The translations under genes were made by a program, and so were the position numbers. A stretch of 27,718 nt of DNA from a virus: UHGV virus genome UHGV-0268347; one strand, given 5' to 3'. Of the stretch, positions 1 to 27,718 are shown in pieces (the stretch's first letter is position 1; every line of letters begins with the position of its first letter). The notes beneath the pieces are model-generated. The model worked only from the letters and a program-made list of their open reading frames with translations. It searched no databases and was not told the origin of the DNA.

Positions 1-141
1 ATGCGGGCAACGGTGTTTAATTATATCGAATGTGATTACAATCGGTGGCGGCGGCACAGTTGGTGTGGCGGCCTCAGTCCGGAACAATTTGAAAACCAGA
101 ACCTCGCTTAAGCCTGTGTCCATATTACGTGGGTAGGATCA
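1..141 (+). mobile_element. insF: IS3 right end: 3' end of transposase orfB (InsF) plus terminal inverted repeat, cut by the window edge
   Basis: Translation of 1..111 is [36 protein letters not shown], which I recognise as the C-terminus of IS3 InsF; ...cacgtgggtaggatca ending at 141 matches the IS3 terminal repeat as I recall it. No search run. Confidence 0.8.
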
Positions 142-181
142 ATAATCGTATCTGTTGTAGCCACAGTCACGTCACATATAA

Positions 182-420
182 GAACTTGCTGGCCTAAGAA
201 GAATGCGCGCTGATTTTGAAGATAAAATCAGCGTTACAACGCCCGAAAGACCCGGGCTAAAAAATTTCTCAGGACATTATCGGCAGGTGACACTCTGGTG
301 GTCTGGAAACTGGATCGACTGAGGCGCAGTATGCGGCATCTTGTCGTGCTGGTGGAGGAACTGCGCGAAAGAGGCATCAACTTTTGCAATCTGACGGATT
401 CAATTGATACACAGTATCTT
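182..420 (+). pseudogene. Serine recombinase (Pin/Gin/Hin-type DNA invertase) remnant, N- and C-terminally truncated with an internal frameshift
   Basis: One frame gives ...FEDKISVTTPERPGLK, the next gives KFLRTLSAGDTLVVWKLDRLRRSMRHLVVLVEELRERGINFCNLTDSIDT; together these resemble residues about 30-95 of Pin-family invertases. The frame switches near the A-run at 255-262. The catalytic-serine N-terminus is absent and the sequence diverges after SIDT. Confidence 0.6.
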
Positions 421-545
421 GTTAACACCAACACATGGCTGCAGGAGGGATATTATCGGTACCCGATTTCAGGATACAGCGCCTGATTAGACTAAAGAGG
501 GGCTATATTGTAGAGTTTGCTAAATTTTTTTATAGGGTTAAGCAA

Positions 546-1616
546 ATGACAGTCAGGAACTACACTAATTTAAATTTAGATCGGACAACTATTGAGGCTA
601 CGTCTAGGGCATTTATTGAAAATAAAAACTATTCCGTCCATTCAATTGGACCAATGCCTGGTGCAAGAGCAGGACTTCGGGTTGTGTTTGCTAAACCAGG
701 AGAAGCTTTGGCAACTGTTAACATTTTCTATAATAACGGAGGGACGTCTACAGTCCAGTATCAAACAGGAGCTAATCATAATCTTGGAAAAGAGTTGGCT
801 GATGATCTCTATGAAACCATCAATCCTGCAGAATTTGAACAGGTAAATATGGTGTTACAAGGGTTCGTTGAAGCGAACGTTTTATCTGTACTTCAGCTCT
901 CAGCAGAGCAGCCACATATACAATTTTACGAATACTTACGGAACACTCATACAACGGTGTGGAAAATTCATTCGCCAGAATTTCAGGATGAGTTGACAGT
1001 TAGTCTGCATCACAGAAATGGAACACTACAAATACAAGGGCGTCCATTGTCATGTTATAGAGTGTTTATATTCAACTTGTCAGAGCTACTCGATTTACAA
1101 GGACTGGAAAAAGTTCTCATTCGTCAGGACGATGGCAAAGCGTATATAGTTCAGAAAGAAGTTGCTCGCTCACATCTAGAGTGTGAAATGGGGGATGCGT
1201 ACCCACTATTGCATAAGAATGTTGAAAAATTGCTCGTTTCTGGGCTGTGTGTTAAACTCGCCGCCCCCGATTTACCCGATTACTGTATGTTGTTGTATCC
1301 TGAATTACGTTCAGTTGAGGGAGTACTTAAATCAACAATGTACCGATATGGCATGCCAATCACGCAGGATGGTTTCGGGCGTTATTTTGATAAAATTGGG
1401 AGTGAATTTATTCTGAAACAACAATTTGGATGCAATTTATCGTCAGCTAAGGTTAAGACCATTAATGATGCCTATACTTTCTTTAACAGAGAACGTCATG
1501 GCCTGTTTCATATGGAGATAGTTGTCGACACAAGCCGTATGGTTTCTGACATGGCACGACTGATGACTAAGGCCAGACAGGCATGGGGAATTATTAAGGA
1601 TTTGTATATTGTTTGA
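546..1616 (+). CDS. rnlA: RNase LS toxin RnlA
   Basis: 356-aa product from ATG 546 (MTVRNYTNLNLDRTTIEA...GLCVKLAAPDLPDYCMLLYPELR...AWGIIKDLYIV); length and sequence closely resemble E. coli RnlA as I recall it. The ORF track's 435 start is an upstream in-frame extension. Confidence 0.8.
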   Translation: MTVRNYTNLNLDRTTIEATSRAFIENKNYSVHSIGPMPGARAGLRVVFAKPGEALATVNIFYNNGGTSTVQYQTGANHNLGKELADDLYETINPAEFEQVNMVLQGFVEANVLSVLQLSAEQPHIQFYEYLRNTHTTVWKIHSPEFQDELTVSLHHRNGTLQIQGRPLSCYRVFIFNLSELLDLQGLEKVLIRQDDGKAYIVQKEVARSHLECEMGDAYPLLHKNVEKLLVSGLCVKLAAPDLPDYCMLLYPELRSVEGVLKSTMYRYGMPITQDGFGRYFDKIGSEFILKQQFGCNLSSAKVKTINDAYTFFNRERHGLFHMEIVVDTSRMVSDMARLMTKARQAWGIIKDLYIV

Positions 1617-1971
1617 AATAACAGGTGTTAACGTCTCAGGGGCTCTCATTGCCGTCGTTATGGCGACTGGCTACGAGAACCCCTTGACTTCAGTTCACGA
1701 AATCGAGAAGAGGCTTTCTGTTATACTGGGCAATTCACAGGCTACAGGTGAGGTTTTGTTTGACCTTTTGTGTTCTAATGGTCCAGAGTGGAATCGCTTT
1801 GTTTCGCTGGAAATAAGGTGTGGCAGTATTTTGCTGGATACTGCCAAAATTGTGGATGAGCAAGAAATTCCAGCGCAGATCTTGAGACATCAGAGAGATG
1901 TATTACGTAACCACCCTGAGTACGTAGAAGACTCTGTGTTAACACCAGATGATGTTCTTTGTATTCTCTAG
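1609..1971 (+). CDS. rnlB: RnlB antitoxin
   Basis: 120-aa product MFEITGVNVSGALIAVVMATGYENPL...NHPEYVEDSVLTPDDV, resembling RnlB; overlaps the rnlA stop by 8 nt (operon arrangement); apparent TTG start. Confidence 0.75.
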   Translation: MFEITGVNVSGALIAVVMATGYENPLTSVHEIEKRLSVILGNSQATGEVLFDLLCSNGPEWNRFVSLEIRCGSILLDTAKIVDEQEIPAQILRHQRDVLRNHPEYVEDSVLTPDDVLCIL

Positions 1972-2108
1972 CTAAGAAATTTTGCACGAGAGGATTTTAA
2001 CCTCCTCCCCGACAGACATGACAGTGCCCAAATGTCTTAAGAACGTATGTACTTGAAATGGACATTGCTAATACCACTGGGTATTGATTAATTTGGGGCT
2101 GGTAAGCA

Positions 2109-2378
2109 TTACAAACCAATAATCTGGAATAGCGCGGTTGCTGCTGCAGACAATGCTGCAAATGAATTGTACTTAGATTGAAGCCGCGCAGTGGCGAAGA
2201 AATCATGGAGATTCACGTTAAGTTCGGGATCTTCATACGTAACCATGACAATTTTTTTGCCTAACTCAACTTTTGCTGTAGCAGATTTAATCCATAAAAT
2301 TGCAGATAAGACGCCAAAAGTTAATGACATCACATGATGATCTTTAATCCAACACATCACAAAAAGTAGATTTTCCAT
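2109..2378 (-). CDS. Hypothetical small hydrophobic protein (89 aa)
   Basis: ORF with a strong RBS (aggaaggtga) 4 nt upstream of ATG on the minus strand; no family recognised; could be a gene fragment. Confidence 0.25.
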   Translation of the reverse strand: MENLLFVMCWIKDHHVMSLTFGVLSAILWIKSATAKVELGKKIVMVTYEDPELNVNLHDFFATARLQSKYNSFAALSAAATALFQIIGL

Positions 2379-2521
2379 TAATCACCTTCCTGATAAAGAA
2401 CAGTGGCATTACAAATAAACAAGAAATCTCCTGTCGCAGGTACCTTGTCAATTTAACACCCACATCAATAAAGGCTGTTGTTCCGTTTGTGGCAGCTGAT
2501 GTATAGACATTTTTGCAGATG

Positions 2522-2548
2522 AAACGAAAAAGCCCGCAGATGCGGGCT
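2522..2548 (-). terminator. Rho-independent terminator (minus strand)
   Basis: Stem agcccgca/tgcgggct with 2-nt loop at 2531-2548, followed on the minus strand by a T-run (plus-strand gaaacgaaaaa). Confidence 0.6.
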
Positions 2549-2678
2549 TTCATGTCACTTGGGAGCCGCGGCTCCTTTGCGTATCCTTTTTTGTATCCTC
2601 ACCGTCTGGTCGGTGTCCTGCTGAGACTGCTAACTTCCTGTTTTTATTGGTGTTGTCCTTACACCGTCCAATCATGAT

Positions 2679-2723
2679 TGGTGGAGCTGGCGGGAGTTGA
2701 ACCCGCGTCCGAAATTCCTACAT
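2679..2723 (-). other. ssrA: Prophage attachment-site core: 45-nt duplicate of the 3' end of tmRNA gene ssrA
   Basis: Reverse complement reads ATGTAGGAATTTCGGACGCGGGTTCAACTCCCGCCAGCTCCACCA, identical to the ssrA 3' end as I recall it; the match stops abruptly at 2724, so this is a partial att copy, not the gene. Confidence 0.8.
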
Positions 2724-2808
2724 ACCATTTTCACTATAGCAAAAACATTAACTTGCGTTTAAAATCAGCAAGTTAGTATTATCTTGTGTTTGTCCGTTTT
2801 ACTCATTT

Positions 2809-3855
2809 TTAATGCTCTGTCGCCAATCTGTCGCCATTGTAGGTCAACGAAGGTTGAGCCTTCCCTTTGTTTGTTACAATTTCATCAAAGATAGCTGGAT
2901 TATTATCTTTCAGTAATCTTGCTAGTATAATGATTTGCCCAGACGAGCCATCATCCTTGAATGAAAGGAAATTATCGGTAATATCAAGAATATCAATGGT
3001 AAATTTGAAGTAGGTTTCAATTGTATCGCCAAGTTCAATGCTGGACATGAAGTTAGTAATCATTTCATATCCATCAAAGTATAAAGTTGCATGTTCATTT
3101 AACTCCATGGGAGTTAGGCAAAGCATTCGATTAAGTTCGGATAAGTGTTTTTCTATTGAATGAAGAGATTGCATTTGACGGATTAAAACTTCGTCAAACT
3201 GAGAGCCACGATTAGATGAATTTATCTTCTCTAGGTTTTTTAGTATATCAACCCAGTGATTATTTACTTCACGTATGTATTCTTTATCTGTATTTTTAGG
3301 CCGTCCCTTCTCTGGTGAGCTATTTATGAAAATATATCTATATAGATGTATTGGGTAGTTAATTTTATAACTTATCTCTTTAGTACCATAATGACGTTCG
3401 CGTTTAATGGTTTTGTTAGGTAAATTGGTGAAATAATCAGTAACGAACTTTAGATGGCTATAGTAGCTATCAGATAGATTCTTTTGCTTGGTTTCCTCAA
3501 TTTGTCGGTTTGTTTGAACTGTGCGGTGTATGTTTGCTACGACAGCAACAAATGGTATGGACAAAGAAAGTAAGGCGATAGGAAGCTTGCTAATTGCAAT
3601 GAAATTATTAAAGCCCTCACTATCAAATTGAGGGGAATGTCCAAGCCAGGAAAATATACCAAAGTATATCGCTGAAAATACAGGAATCCTAAGTGATTGT
3701 TTAAATAAGTATTGACTTGTTAATGGCCTTTCATCCATGTTAAAGCCTTTTTTTGATACGCATAGATATAATTCAAGGCATATATATATAAAATATATTA
3801 TGATAAGTAAGTACGATATCCATGGGTATTGTTGGATATAGTTATTAACAAGCAC
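2809..3855 (-). CDS. Hypothetical multi-pass membrane protein (348 aa), AT-rich integrase-adjacent moron
   Basis: ORF between int and att; N-terminus has about three hydrophobic helices (WISYLLIIIYFIYICLELYL, IPVFSAIYFGIFSWLG, LPIALLSLSIPFVAVVANI), then a roughly 230-aa soluble domain; visibly AT-rich. GTG start at 3855 overlaps the int stop, preceded by GGAG; the next in-frame Met is residue 40. Confidence 0.55.
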   Translation of the reverse strand: MLVNNYIQQYPWISYLLIIIYFIYICLELYLCVSKKGFNMDERPLTSQYLFKQSLRIPVFSAIYFGIFSWLGHSPQFDSEGFNNFIAISKLPIALLSLSIPFVAVVANIHRTVQTNRQIEETKQKNLSDSYYSHLKFVTDYFTNLPNKTIKRERHYGTKEISYKINYPIHLYRYIFINSSPEKGRPKNTDKEYIREVNNHWVDILKNLEKINSSNRGSQFDEVLIRQMQSLHSIEKHLSELNRMLCLTPMELNEHATLYFDGYEMITNFMSSIELGDTIETYFKFTIDILDITDNFLSFKDDGSSGQIIILARLLKDNNPAIFDEIVTNKGKAQPSLTYNGDRLATEH

Positions 3856-11564: not shown

Positions 11565-11797
11565 CGAACAGAATTTAGCCAAGCGATAAGTCATTCATCC
11601 AAGGGGGCGGCGTTTGCCGCACTTTTATGGATGTTAGAACTAGTATTTTAGATCTTTATTTTATTTAACATTTTGATTGTTATGCATTTTATTTGTTTTT
11701 GTTACTTTTGTCTGTAAAAATTTTGTAGGGTAAAATCATCATCGAAGTCGAGTTAAAATGATGCTACAATCCTTCAAGTATAGAGGGAGGACTTATT

Positions 11798-12838
11798 TTG
11801 ATTAAAGTTGTTGATCTTTTTTGCGGAGCAGGTGGCTTAACTCATGGTTTGCAACGAGCAGGGTTGAATGTGGTTGCAGGCTATGATATTGATGCTACAT
11901 GTCGGTATGCTTATGAAAAAAATAACAATGCTTTATTTGTGCAAAAAAGCGTCACTGAACTTGATGAAGGGGAAATAAGTAAGCATTTTAAGGATGCATC
12001 AATTAAAGTTTTAGCTGGATGCGCTCCATGCCAGCCATTTTCTAGTTATACAAATACTGATAAATCAGTAAAAAAAATAAAAGACCATCGATGGTCTTTA
12101 TTGTATAGCTTTGCTAAGCAAATTCAATTATGTGCTCCAGATATAGTCACAATGGAGAATGTTCCAAGAGTTATTAACCACAAAGTTTTTAAAGATTTTG
12201 TGAAGACTTTAAAGTCTGAAGGGTATTTCGTTTGGTATGATACTGTATTTTGTCCTGATTATGGAATGGCCCAAAGCCGATCTAGATTAGTGTTATTAGC
12301 GTCCAAGTTTGGCGAGATAAAACTAATCCCGCCAACACATGATAAAAATAACTATAACACTGTACGTAGCGTTATTGGTGGATTGCCTCCTATTGATGCT
12401 GGATCGAGTGATGAGAAAGACAGACTTCATTATGCTGCATCTTTATCACCATTAAATATGGAGCGAATAAAACATTCTAAGCCAGGTGGAACATGGAAAG
12501 ATTGGCCTGAGTACTTACGGGCGTCATGCCACACCAAAGAATCAGGATCTTCTTACACTGCAGTTTATGGAAGAATGAGCTGGGATAAACTTGGCTCTAC
12601 AATTACAACACAATGTATAGGTTTTGGTAATGGTCGATTTGGTCATCCAGAACAAAATAGAGCTATTAGCCTAAGAGAGGCAGCTTTGCTTCAATCTTTT
12701 CCTCTAACTTATGAATTTTGGCCAGCTGAAGTAAAAGTTGAACTCAGGAATGTTGCACGACTGATTGGTAATGCTGTGCCGGTGAGGCTCGGTGAAGTTG
12801 TTGGGCAAAGTATTATTGAACACCTTAAAAGAAAATAA
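11798..12838 (+). CDS. DNA (cytosine-5) methyltransferase
   Basis: 346 aa with canonical C5-MTase motifs: I DLFCGAGG, IV GCAPCQPFS (catalytic Cys), VI ENV, VIII QSRSRLVLL, X GNAVPV. TTG start with RBS agggagga and extended -10 (tgcTACAAT) upstream; visibly AT-rich. Confidence 0.92.
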   Translation: MIKVVDLFCGAGGLTHGLQRAGLNVVAGYDIDATCRYAYEKNNNALFVQKSVTELDEGEISKHFKDASIKVLAGCAPCQPFSSYTNTDKSVKKIKDHRWSLLYSFAKQIQLCAPDIVTMENVPRVINHKVFKDFVKTLKSEGYFVWYDTVFCPDYGMAQSRSRLVLLASKFGEIKLIPPTHDKNNYNTVRSVIGGLPPIDAGSSDEKDRLHYAASLSPLNMERIKHSKPGGTWKDWPEYLRASCHTKESGSSYTAVYGRMSWDKLGSTITTQCIGFGNGRFGHPEQNRAISLREAALLQSFPLTYEFWPAEVKVELRNVARLIGNAVPVRLGEVVGQSIIEHLKRK

Positions 12839-12863
12839 AAAGGGCGAATCGCCCTTTTTTTTA
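12839..12863. terminator. Bidirectional rho-independent terminator shared by the convergent gene pair
   Basis: Stem agggcg-aat-cgccct flanked by an A-run on one side and a T-run on the other (aaaagggcgaatcgcccttttttttag). Confidence 0.75.
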
Positions 12864-14819
12864 GATACCATCAACAATTTTCATTATTCGTGCAGCATCA
12901 TCTTTTTTGCTCTGATACTCAGAGTATGCTTGTTTGGATTGTATTATAAGATCGCTATATGTTAATACCTTTGCATTTATAGATTGTAGCTGTGAGCGAA
13001 TATAATTATCTCCACTTCCGTCATAACCTTTGCCGACAAGAAAAACTACATCTATCGGTGGTATTTTTCCGGCAGGGCAACTATTTGGGTTGTTTCTAAA
13101 CCACTGCTCTGTGGCAACAACATATTTCCTTCCTTGACCTACTAATGCCAAAATATCAGGATATACATTTGGTCTTTTCATTTCAATGATGACGTGTTTA
13201 CCTGAAACGGTTTTGAAGGCTATATCAATTCTTGCACCACTTTCAGCGTCAGGGTTAACCTCTTTCAATTCCTTAGTCAGGGTTTGTTCCATAACTGTAG
13301 AACCAGTAACCCTCTCCCATGATGGGTCTAACAGCCATAAGTGGTCATAAAGATATTTTTGTACAGCCTTCTCTAACTCATTGTCATCGGTGATTTTTTG
13401 AAATTTCTCAATAACTTTCAATCGCTGTGATGTAATCTCATAAAAAAGGCTTGCCTCAATATCATTTACAGAAGCAAAAACCTCCCTAAAATGTTCTGAG
13501 TTTAAATCGCTAATTTTATCTAAAGCCTCAAGGTTATCTTTTATTCTTAATCTTTCAAAAGCAAGAACTGTATTTTTTAATACGGTTTTTTTTGCAATTT
13601 TCTGGTTTTCTTCATCTCCAGAAAATCTAAATGTGTTAATTTTGCCTAGTAATTTTTCGGCGCTGTTTCTTTCATGTTTTGACATGGAATCAAGCCAATC
13701 ACTTACAGCAGGTGAAGTTTTTTTAACCTCGCTAAGACCTTTTGCTCTTCGCCATTCATCCCATTCTTTATCTATTTTTTGTAATGTCCGTTCTAAGAAA
13801 CCCTTAATCACAGGATAGCGTGGATCATTCTGCTGTAATTTCTGTCGGGATGAGGTTGCCATGTCAGGTTTTTCATTTTCATCTAAAAAATCTGCGACAA
13901 GTTCCCCTACTAAATAATTTGTAAAAACCTTTGCGCTTCCGAATTCAAGCAATATATCTTCTTCAAATACCCGCCCATTTGATATTACGGTTATCGTGTT
14001 GTTAGATATTTCAGGGTCTTTTTTAAGTTGAGATGGTTTCTCAACACTTCCTACATAACCAGTAATGAAATAATCTACGCCTTCAAAAGATAATTTGTTA
14101 TCTAGAAGGCTTTTTTTAGAAAGATTTTTGCAAGATTTTACTCTTGCGGGATCTGAACTACCAAACTCCCATAAAAATTCAAGATCTGAAAGGAAGTCTC
14201 TATCTTCAGTAGTTATCTCAGTGTCATTGATTTTAACTATAAAATCATGACCAGGACCAATTATGCTAAACCGTCTGGCAAGTCTTTTTCTTAGATAGGT
14301 CTGAGTTCTATCAATGGATTTTTTTAAATCCATAAGAACTATTGTCGTCCCTATACTAAAGTCTTTCGGAACATTAATAATATTTGCAACATATTGTTTA
14401 CTGCTTTTTATACAGCGTTGCAATTCATCAACGTCAACTTCAAATCCCTGAGGCGTTTGGCCAATTTTGTGAGAAAATACTTGGATTTTGTTAGCTAATG
14501 AAAACATTGCTAATTTACCAATGCCTTTTCTACCCATGACTTGTCGTTGTAATCCATCACTTTTATACCTTCCACTTTCTCTTCTGGCATATCCAACTTT
14601 TAGGAATTTATTAATGATGTCATCTTTTGACATTCCATGTCCATCATCTTTAATTATTACCTTTTCATTTTCAACATCTAGAGTGATGTCTACATTTTTA
14701 GCATCCGCATCCCAAGCATTTGAGATTATTTCAGTTAGAACAGCTGGTGTGTTAGAGTAAAGACTCATACCTAAATGATTCAATACATTCAGGTCTATTT
14801 TAATTTCGAAATCGGACAT
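12861..14819 (-). CDS. GHKL-family ATPase fused to a C-terminal PD-(D/E)xK nuclease domain (652 aa); candidate restriction/defence effector
   Basis: N-terminus has Bergerat-fold motifs: N-box EIISNAWDADAKN, G1 IKDDGHGMS, G2 GRKGIGKLAMFS. C-terminus has GARIDIAF...GKHVIIEMKRP (acidic D532 and E546-x-K548 after hydrophobic strands). RBS aaggaaagga; visibly AT-rich. Confidence 0.85.
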   Translation of the reverse strand: MSDFEIKIDLNVLNHLGMSLYSNTPAVLTEIISNAWDADAKNVDITLDVENEKVIIKDDGHGMSKDDIINKFLKVGYARRESGRYKSDGLQRQVMGRKGIGKLAMFSLANKIQVFSHKIGQTPQGFEVDVDELQRCIKSSKQYVANIINVPKDFSIGTTIVLMDLKKSIDRTQTYLRKRLARRFSIIGPGHDFIVKINDTEITTEDRDFLSDLEFLWEFGSSDPARVKSCKNLSKKSLLDNKLSFEGVDYFITGYVGSVEKPSQLKKDPEISNNTITVISNGRVFEEDILLEFGSAKVFTNYLVGELVADFLDENEKPDMATSSRQKLQQNDPRYPVIKGFLERTLQKIDKEWDEWRRAKGLSEVKKTSPAVSDWLDSMSKHERNSAEKLLGKINTFRFSGDEENQKIAKKTVLKNTVLAFERLRIKDNLEALDKISDLNSEHFREVFASVNDIEASLFYEITSQRLKVIEKFQKITDDNELEKAVQKYLYDHLWLLDPSWERVTGSTVMEQTLTKELKEVNPDAESGARIDIAFKTVSGKHVIIEMKRPNVYPDILALVGQGRKYVVATEQWFRNNPNSCPAGKIPPIDVVFLVGKGYDGSGDNYIRSQLQSINAKVLTYSDLIIQSKQAYSEYQSKKDDAARIMKIVDGI

Positions 14820-25900: not shown

Positions 25901-26498
25901 TCTGCTGCCACCGGGTTCAACTTCACTGGAGCGCCGACTGGCGCAGACCTGTAGCGGGATTTCTGATCTGCAGGTGCCGCTGCGTGACTTGTGGAATCCG
26001 GCGACCTGTCCGGTCAGTTTCCTTCCTTATCTCGCCTGGGCGTTCTCTGTGGATCGCTGGGACGAGGGCTGGACAGAAAGCGTCAAGCGCCAGGTGGTGA
26101 AGGATGCTTTTTATATTCATCAGCATAAAGGGACCACCAGTGCCGTGCGGCGGGTGGTGGAGCCGTTCGGCTTTCTGATCCGCATTATTGAGTGGTGGCA
26201 GACCGGAGAAACACCGGGCACGTTTCGCCTGGATATCGGCGTGCAGGACCAGGGCATCACTGAAGATACCTATCTGGAACTTGAGCGGCTGATAAGCGAT
26301 GCCAAACCATGTAGCCGCCATCTGATCGGCATGTCCATCAATCTGCAGACCAGCGGCCCGCATTGGGTGGGGGCTGCCAGCTATCTTGGCGAAGAAATCA
26401 CGATCTATCCGTATATCAACGAAACAATTATTTCCGGCGGCACCGCGCATGAAGGCGGGGCGGTCCATGTTATTGACACAATGAGAGTGAATCCATGA
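25893..26498 (+). CDS. I: Tail/baseplate protein I
   Basis: 201 aa; P2 gpI-like; overlaps J and H. Confidence 0.85.
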   Translation: MNSLLPPGSTSLERRLAQTCSGISDLQVPLRDLWNPATCPVSFLPYLAWAFSVDRWDEGWTESVKRQVVKDAFYIHQHKGTTSAVRRVVEPFGFLIRIIEWWQTGETPGTFRLDIGVQDQGITEDTYLELERLISDAKPCSRHLIGMSINLQTSGPHWVGAASYLGEEITIYPYINETIISGGTAHEGGAVHVIDTMRVNP

Positions 26499-27718
26499 GC
26501 ACAAAATTTTATACCCTGCTGACGGATATTGGCGCGGCGAAACTTGCCAGCGCCGCCGCGCTCGGTGTGCCGTTAAAAATTACCCATATGGCGGTAGGCG
26601 ATGGCGGCGGAACATTACCAACGCCGGACGCAAAGCAGACGGCACTGGTAAATGAGAAACGCCGGGCTGCGTTGAATATGCTCTATATCGACCCGCAGAA
26701 CAGTAGCCAGATTATTGCTGAACAGGTGATCCCTGAAAACGAGGGCGGTTGGTGGATACGTGAAGTGGGCCTGTTTGATGAGTCCGGGGCATTGATTGCC
26801 GTGGGAAACTGCCCGGAAAGCTATAAACCGCAACTGGCTGAAGGCAGCGGGCGCACCCAGACCGTACGCATGGTGCTGATTACCAGCAGTACGGACAATA
26901 TCACCCTGAAAATCGACCCTGCTGTAGTACTAGCAACTCGCAAGTATGTGGATGATAAAGCACTGGAGCTGAAGGTGTATGTGGATGACCAAATGGCAAA
27001 ACACCTTGCCGCAGCGGACCCACATTCACAGTATGCGCCCAAAGAAAGTCCGACATTTACCGGGACACCCAAAGCGCCAACGCCAGCAGCAGGGAATAAC
27101 ACCACGCAGATTGCGACCACCGCGTTTGTTCAGGCGGCTCTGACGGCTCTTATTAATGGTGCGCCAGCCACGCTGGACACGCTGAAAGAAATAGCCGCAG
27201 CCATTAACAATGATCCGAAATTCAGTACCACCATTAACAATGCGCTGGCACTAAAAGCACCGCTGTCGAGTCCGGCACTCACCGGAACGCCAACCGCACC
27301 TACTGCGGCACAGTCGGTCAACAATACACAGATTGCCACTACAGCTTTTGTGAAATCAGCGATTGCAGCAATGGTGGGTTCTGCACCTGCGGCACTGGAT
27401 ACACTGAACGAACTGGCGGCGGCACTGGGGAATGATCCGAACTTTGCCACGACAATGCTTAATGCGCTGGCAGGTAAACAACCGCTGGACAATACGCTGA
27501 CTAATTTGAGTGGAAAGGATGTAGCTGGTCTTCTCGCATACCTTGGTTTGGGAGAAGGTTCGGCATTACCCGTTGGCGTGCCTGTTCCGTGGCCTTCCGC
27601 CACTCCGCCAACAGGCTGGCTGAAATGCAACGGGGCGGCTTTTTCTGCTGAAGAATACCCGGAACTGGCAAAGGTTTACCCGACAAATAAATTGCCTGAT
27701 TTACGCGGTGAGTTTATT
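26495..27718 (+). CDS. H: Tail fibre protein H, N-terminal 408 codons, truncated by the window end
   Basis: Open frame from ATG 26495 (overlapping the I stop) to the window end with no stop: MSTKFYTLLTDIGAAKLASAAALGVPLKITHMAVGDGGG..., the conserved P2-like gpH N-terminus. Absent from the ORF track because no stop lies in the window. Confidence 0.9.
   Translation, partial: MSTKFYTLLTDIGAAKLASAAALGVPLKITHMAVGDGGGTLPTPDAKQTALVNEKRRAALNMLYIDPQNSSQIIAEQVIPENEGGWWIREVGLFDESGALIAVGNCPESYKPQLAEGSGRTQTVRMVLITSSTDNITLKIDPAVVLATRKYVDDKALELKVYVDDQMAKHLAAADPHSQYAPKESPTFTGTPKAPTPAAGNNTTQIATTAFVQAALTALINGAPATLDTLKEIAAAINNDPKFSTTINNALALKAPLSSPALTGTPTAPTAAQSVNNTQIATTAFVKSAIAAMVGSAPAALDTLNELAAALGNDPNFATTMLNALAGKQPLDNTLTNLSGKDVAGLLAYLGLGEGSALPVGVPVPWPSATPPTGWLKCNGAAFSAEEYPELAKVYPTNKLPDLRGEFI

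Follow-up and report, generated by a model that had tools for sequence, protein, structure and literature searches.

A tandem 74-residue module in the predicted P2-type tail fibre gene H of an Escherichia coli prophage and its counterpart in phage P1

The predicted tail fibre gene H of a P2/186-like prophage encodes two abutting copies of a 74-residue module. Very probably these are ancient paralogous modules of the fibre shaft, which are shared as a pair with phage P1 and whose number is altered by rare unequal crossover. Repeats of this kind are already known as b1/b2 in the P1/P2 fibre family, and the prophage allele that carries this one is common; the repeat separates the attachment domain from the switchable distal portion of the fibre and is conserved at the protein level. 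The additions to the known picture are small, namely a missing curated model for the module and natural one-, two- and three-copy alleles with mapped exchange points.

Gene H and its internal repeat

The stretch of DNA analysed (hereafter the window; 27,718 nucleotides) is 100% identical to positions 1264963-1292680 of E. coli HS4 (NZ_CP142035.1), and within it lies a P2/186-like prophage, from the integrase and CI repressor genes to the tail-fibre gene H. The H product is 100% identical to HS4 VJY30_RS06270, a 514-aa "phage tail protein". The gene order in the RefSeq annotation of the identical HS4 locus is V-W-J-I-H followed by a tail-fibre assembly gene, and the N-terminal domain, which is also present in P2 gpH, matches its Pfam profile over the full length; on these grounds H is assigned to the P2 gpH-type tail fibres, and together with the distal Collar domain they bear out the identification as tail fibre H that the first-pass annotation had made. 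The N-terminal domain is presumed to attach the fibre to the baseplate. The features of H are as follows.

26495..27718, + strand: gene H, predicted P2 gpH-type tail fibre (translation, frame 1; 408 of 514 codons, the rest beyond the window end)
26495..26944, + strand: N-terminal tail-collar-fibre domain, aa 1-150 (Pfam PF12571, E 4.6e-65, profile positions 1-150 of 150)
27047..27268, + strand: module copy 1, aa 185-258; corresponds to "repeated element b1" of P1 gpS
27098..27129 (partner 27320-27351), + strand: conserved patch 1, which codes NNTTQIATTAFV; direct repeat D1, 32 nt, 78% identical
27239..27250 (partner 27461-27472), + strand: conserved patch 2, AATGCGCTGGCA, which codes NALA; the longest exact in-register run, 12 nt
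27269..27490, + strand: module copy 2, aa 259-332; corresponds to "repeated element b2" of P1 gpS and to the one module in P2 gpH
27531..27557, + strand: cix/gix-type invertase crossover site TTCTCGCATACCTTGGTTTGGGAGAAG, an inverted repeat that ends the constant part of H
27575..27718, + strand: start of the distal Collar domain, aa 361-408, its first 48 residues (Pfam PF07484, E 2.9e-14)

The repeat unit is 74 aa (222 nt), and the two copies abut exactly, head to tail; their ungapped alignment has 46 of the 74 residues in common (BLASTP E 5e-29). When the whole 514-aa protein is plotted against itself (windowed BLOSUM62 dot-plot, 25-aa window), the diagonal at offset 74 scores 92 and the next best 33, and this pair is the sole internal repeat that the plot reveals; BLASTP of the full protein against itself gave the main diagonal only. 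The first-pass annotation had described an internal tandem repeat here and had named a dot-plot devoid of significant internal similarity as the outcome that would speak against it. The offset-74 diagonal is clear, and both of the peptides quoted are present in the frame 1 translation of 26495-27718, so the repeat itself stands, but not the size and boundaries given for it (modules of about 55 aa at 27100-27480): the pair extends over 27047-27490, and the units as first drawn lacked the first 16-17 residues of each copy (SPTFTGTPKAPTPAAG and SPALTGTPTAPTAAQSV). A weak similarity at half the period (offset 37, score 28) within a module is not significant. Upstream, the linker that leads from the N-terminal domain to module copy 1 has GTATGTGGATGA as an exact direct repeat of 12 nt at 26944-26955 and 26977-26988 (33 nt apart), which encodes YVDD twice (KYVDDKALELKVYVDD).

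The H allele family is common. Of 5,426 complete E. coli genomes, 2,406 gave a match to a 1,719-nt query that runs from the 3′ part of gene I through the portion of H inside the window; in 872 genomes the match extended over 80% or more of the query.

The crossover site begins 40 nt after copy 2 and aligns with the annotated cixR region of P1. Its partner lies 1.9 kb downstream, outside the window (the inverted-repeat arms, at L002 6532-6558 and 8500-8526, are 81% complementary). Between the arms HS4 has the rest of H, the assembly gene, and an inverted assembly gene with a 164-aa alternative C-terminus, and a recombinase gene lies just past the right arm, likewise outside the window. The H gene of pro483 carries in frame the alternative C-terminus that HS4 has on the inverted strand; therefore both orientations are used in nature. 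Judged from this arrangement, the prophage appears to hold a P1/Mu-style host-range switch in a P2-like context. The Collar domain, whose in-window stretch matches residues 27-78 of the T4 gp37 tip (2xgf_A) in sequence, is the variable, switchable part of the fibre, and the obvious host-range device is the invertase-switched C-terminus, not the repeat. It had been stated that the receptor-binding C-terminus lies outside the window; this is correct only in part, as the crossover site and the first 48 Collar residues (27575-27718) are inside. Among related phages the main break in similarity also falls at the crossover site (query position about 1063, window position about 27557) and not in the repeat, and it is this cix-like site that marks the boundary of the constant part and the point at which host-range cassettes are swapped. 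In the prophage with a three-copy H gene (L003 4001-6339) the sheath gene comes immediately after the assembly gene, and no gene is called there for an inverted cassette or a recombinase; this lineage appears to have lost the invertible segment.

Two further parts of the window deserve mention. Two cargo genes (11795-14819) separate the replication gene from the portal gene, at a position that in P2-like phages often holds anti-phage defence cargo, and the genes at 1-3738, which adjoin the prophage integrase, suggest another integrated element beside the prophage.

11795-12838, + strand: DNA cytosine methyltransferase (cargo)
12861-14819, - strand: 652-aa "ATP-binding protein" (cargo)
1-1288, - strand: truncated ATP-binding protein gene
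1307-2494, - strand: second integrase-domain gene
2809-3738, - strand: hypothetical gene

Distribution and predicted structure of the module

Residues 185-332 of H match no Pfam domain and nothing significant in NCBIfam, and a full-text literature search with the module motif as the string returned nothing relevant. A profile of the two-copy module was searched against 1.84 billion representative proteins (clusters at 50% identity) and matches 40,583 clusters at E ≤ 1e-3 and 13,652 at E ≤ 1e-10. The module is thus present in more than 40,000 protein clusters, yet no Pfam-A or NCBIfam model covers it, and in the absence of such a model this region stays unannotated in fibre proteins. Besides P2-type fibres, the family is found in lambdoid side tail fibres and in Actinobacteria phages. 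The 150 best matches, a set biased towards many copies, contain from 0 to 11 full modules per protein, and the longest tandem run of full modules is nine (P0122); representatives with the P2-H N-terminal domain have one to four, which mostly start near residue 185. Copy number is far more uniform close to H, where 118 of the 120 closest clusters have two modules, one (P0003, 14 member sequences) has three, and one has four by way of a 254-aa duplication. This last protein (P0001; 768 aa, Salmonella Typhi, known from one contig) has two Collar domains as well as four modules, and its internal duplication is joined at an NNTT microhomology that the C-terminal domain (MPNNTTDIG) shares with module 1 (GNNTTQ); either illegitimate recombination or an assembly artefact would account for this protein.

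The module can be divided into two halves, each of which is also found without the other. Some very long fibre proteins (P0124, P0127 and P0129 among them) have arrays of 10-23 units made of the first ∼35 residues alone (SPxxTGxPxAPT...QIATTAFV), and the second half (APxxLDTLxELAxALgxDPnF) stands by itself in minor tail or collar-fibre proteins of mycobacteriophages (262 Mycobacterium phage records; genes 4-7).

Partial matches to solved fibres, together with secondary-structure prediction, are the grounds on which we infer a fold and a shaft role. Residues 128-176 of the phiTE long tail fibre (9cuy_g) match aa 178-226 of H (E 1.5e-5), that is, the residues just upstream of the module and the module's first 42, and the cyanophage A4 fibre (9k09) matches its first 30 residues (E 4e-4). 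The helical half is matched by Bxb1 gp4 (9d93, residues 196-244; E 4e-12) and by the 80-alpha-type "Fiber Upper, gp68" (6v8i; E 0.009). None of the solved structures detectable by sequence covers the whole module. Each module would probably consist of a short beta segment (SPxxTGxPxAPT) and then helices (TQIATTAFVxxAL..., APxxLDTLxELAxAL and NDPxFxTTxxNAL) within the fibre trimer, and would form one unit of the trimeric shaft that adds a fixed increment of length. An AF2 monomer model of aa 178-338 gives coil and three helices in both copies, but at a pLDDT of 37.6 it is unreliable (the alignment was shallow, its 16 sequences all being 94% or more identical across the region modelled), and it was rejected as a query for fold searches, in which such a value would make any match meaningless.

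If the modules are shaft units of this kind, then gain or loss of one would, judging from protein length, change the shaft by a fixed step. The first-pass annotation, which linked such modules to fibre length and host range, may thus be right about length; its host-range effect finds no support here. A stronger reading makes module number an evolvable ruler, in which rare crossovers at the two microhomology patches add or remove 74-residue units; fibre reach would then be tuned to the thickness of the host O-antigen or capsule, and adsorption efficiency or host range would shift independently of the invertase-switched tip. We consider this possible but unlikely.

It is quite improbable that the modules themselves bind something, be it the assembly protein, a surface polysaccharide (weakly) or, in the retracted state, the baseplate or sheath. 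Such a role would fit the strong purifying selection on both copies (see below), the very wide conservation across unrelated phages, those of Actinobacteria included, and the proximity of the matching N-terminal stretch of the phiTE fibre to its baseplate contacts. However, a copy number that ranges from one to nine and halves that stand alone in long arrays are typical of structural building blocks, the module is far from the C-terminal region next to which the tfa genes are encoded, and no family with a binding function matches it.

Origin of the pair and exchange between its copies

The shaft-module reading, in which the pair is old, draws on P1. A tblastn search of phage genomes located the pair in P1 and P7, where the full 148 residues align at 82-83% identity (for P1, 82.4% over 148 aa, E 2e-54), and in the P1 entry (GenBank AF234172) the very same stretch bears the annotations "repeated element b1" (223 nt) and "repeated element b2" (222 nt). 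The P1 elements lie in the constant part, Sc, of gene S, directly upstream of cixR and the Cin-invertible segment. The pairing is one to one: copy 1 is identical to b1 at 60 of 74 residues and to b2 at 45, and copy 2 to b2 at 62 of 74 and to b1 at 50. The two-copy state therefore predates the sharing of the block between P1-type and P2-type fibres. With a 222-nt unit, this pairing, and a place in the constant part upstream of the crossover site, the H repeat has the features of the P1 b1/b2 module, and P2-type and P1-type fibre genes appear from these alignments to have the two-module block in common as a unit.

Tail-fibre genes are mosaic and the module is common to P1, P7, lambdoid side tail fibres and others, so the two diverged modules might instead have been acquired separately, by independent horizontal-transfer insertions, rather than as a duplicated pair. 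We think this very unlikely: P1 keeps the order of the two types and their exact 222-nt register, again beside a cix site, the junction between the copies is seamless, and a single transfer of the whole pair is far more economical than two.

At the DNA level the copies are identical at 138 of 222 positions (62%). Identity by codon position is 51/74, 61/74 and 26/74 (69%, 82% and 35%), with third positions near saturation, and from this pattern it follows that the duplication is old and that both copies are under purifying selection. Tandem Repeats Finder returned 0 rows for the DNA because the copies are too diverged; this blank result and the 62% identity mean that the repeat is one of protein and not a DNA tandem array.

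Relatives of H nevertheless differ in copy number, and their modules carry traces of exchange. Modules of relatives were scored at the sites at which the two copies in the window differ, with Fisher tests for a change along the module; the segment limits were chosen after inspection of the data, so the p values that follow are somewhat optimistic. In the three-copy allele (P0003/L003) nt 1-84 of the middle module have 22 copy-2-like and 4 copy-1-like sites, and the remainder has 48 copy-1-like and 2 copy-2-like sites (p 5e-13), which places the switch at or just after the 3′ end of patch 1. This middle module looks like the product expected of an exchange at the conserved NNTQIATTAFV patch. 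The single module of Fels-2 switches in the same region (head 15 copy-1-like vs 9, tail 8 vs 41 copy-2-like; p 1e-4) and, although its head is only moderately copy-1-like, it would be the reciprocal, deletion-type product; in both cases the informative sites change over near module nt ∼72-84. The single modules of pro483 and MET_P1_103_31 have 63 and 59 copy-1-like sites, respectively, vs 7 copy-2-like to nt 192, and then 0 vs 7 in each (p about 1e-6), so that they switch at AATGCGCTGGCA (after NNAL; module nt ∼193-204). Chimeric modules of the sort that unequal crossover leaves over evolutionary time are accordingly found in the three-copy P0003/L003 and in the single-copy Fels-2, pro483 and MET_P1_103_31 genes. 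Unequal crossover between the copies at the two short conserved patches would give one-, three- and four-copy alleles, and parsimony favours a two-copy ancestor as the starting point of both deletion and expansion. Natural alleles with one to four copies and mapped patches would mark the points at which P2-type fibres, or tailocins, could be engineered to a different length.

Such events are rare. When the real three-copy junction was used as a query against the 5,426 complete E. coli genomes, the best-ranked matches were all in two pieces at no more than 94.7% identity; synthetic one- and three-copy queries gave only two-copy loci among the matches listed, in a ranking that treats one- and two-piece matches alike and may hold rare variants lower down. 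Two copies in 118 of the 120 closest clusters and two-piece matches at the junction mean that the repeat is stable and not hypervariable. The first-pass annotation had called fibre repeats of this kind recombination-prone and had proposed a comparison of copy number among related prophages. On an evolutionary time scale that holds, given relatives with one, two, three or four copies and chimeric modules, but near-fixation at two copies and exact runs no longer than 12 nt show that instability was overstated.

The same evidence makes it extremely unlikely that the pair arose recently as an unstable tandem DNA duplication, of the VNTR or contingency-locus type, whose frequent copy changes vary the fibre within a population. 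Copy numbers of one to four among relatives and the existence of chimeric modules would be expected of such a locus, but so would near-identical copies detectable by Tandem Repeats Finder and variation among close relatives, and neither is found; the saturated third positions, the short exact runs and the uniform best-ranked junction matches all speak against it, and P1 has the same two diverged copies.

Finally, Ala, Thr and Asn are abundant in this region, and a mechanical reverse-strand ORF overlaps it.

27130-27630, - strand: 166-aa ORF, TTG start, antisense to the repeat

Neither a composition artefact nor an antisense gene explains the similarity, and both can be dismissed: the copies score 231 in a Smith-Waterman comparison where 2000 composition-preserving shuffles give 36 ± 6.7 with a maximum of 66 (z = 29), in agreement with the dot-plot, and the + frame runs unbroken into recognised domains on either side, has conserved counterparts in thousands of proteins and alone fits the codon-position identities. 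The ORF is probably a side effect of the Ala-rich GCN codons in H.

Comparison with P1, P2 and related fibres

The shaft repeat family that does have a curated model is a different one. PF03406 (Phage_fiber_2, "phage tail fibre repeat") is, like the present module, a short shaft repeat found in P1 S and P2 H, but its motif is different and its unit is the "a" repeat of about 40 aa; in those two proteins it covers the "a" repeats only. H has no match to it at E ≤ 1, and P0122, with its nine tandem modules, has none at E ≤ 0.1.

The closest parallel is P1 gpS, whose repeated elements b1 and b2 were reportedly described by Sandmeier, Iida and Arber (J Bacteriol, 1992). Both proteins have two tandem 74-aa units in the constant part, upstream of a cix-type site, and an invertible segment with alternative C-termini. 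They differ in that the N-terminal anchor of H is of the P2 gpH type (PF12571) and not of the P1 S type, P1 has "a" repeats (PF03406) before b1 that are absent from H, copy 2 and the crossover site are 40 nt apart in H and about 150 nt apart in P1, and the distal part is a Collar domain in H, whereas P1 S has a Gp34_trimer match. P2 gpH, in turn, resembles H in its N-terminal domain, its place in the tail gene cluster and in having one module of the family, a copy-2-like one at aa 256-328 (112.8 bits). Unlike H, P2 has one such module rather than two, with two PF03406 "a" repeats upstream of it; its C-terminal part also differs, and the features listed after H and G include no invertase gene. 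The H proteins of Fels-2, pro483 and MET_P1_103_31 (Peduoviridae) share the N-terminal domain and, as in the window, the module starts at residue 185, but it is single and chimeric relative to copies 1 and 2; at the crossover region pro483 and MET_P1_103_31 have LAYLGLGE in common with H, and Fels-2 has LTYLGLGE.
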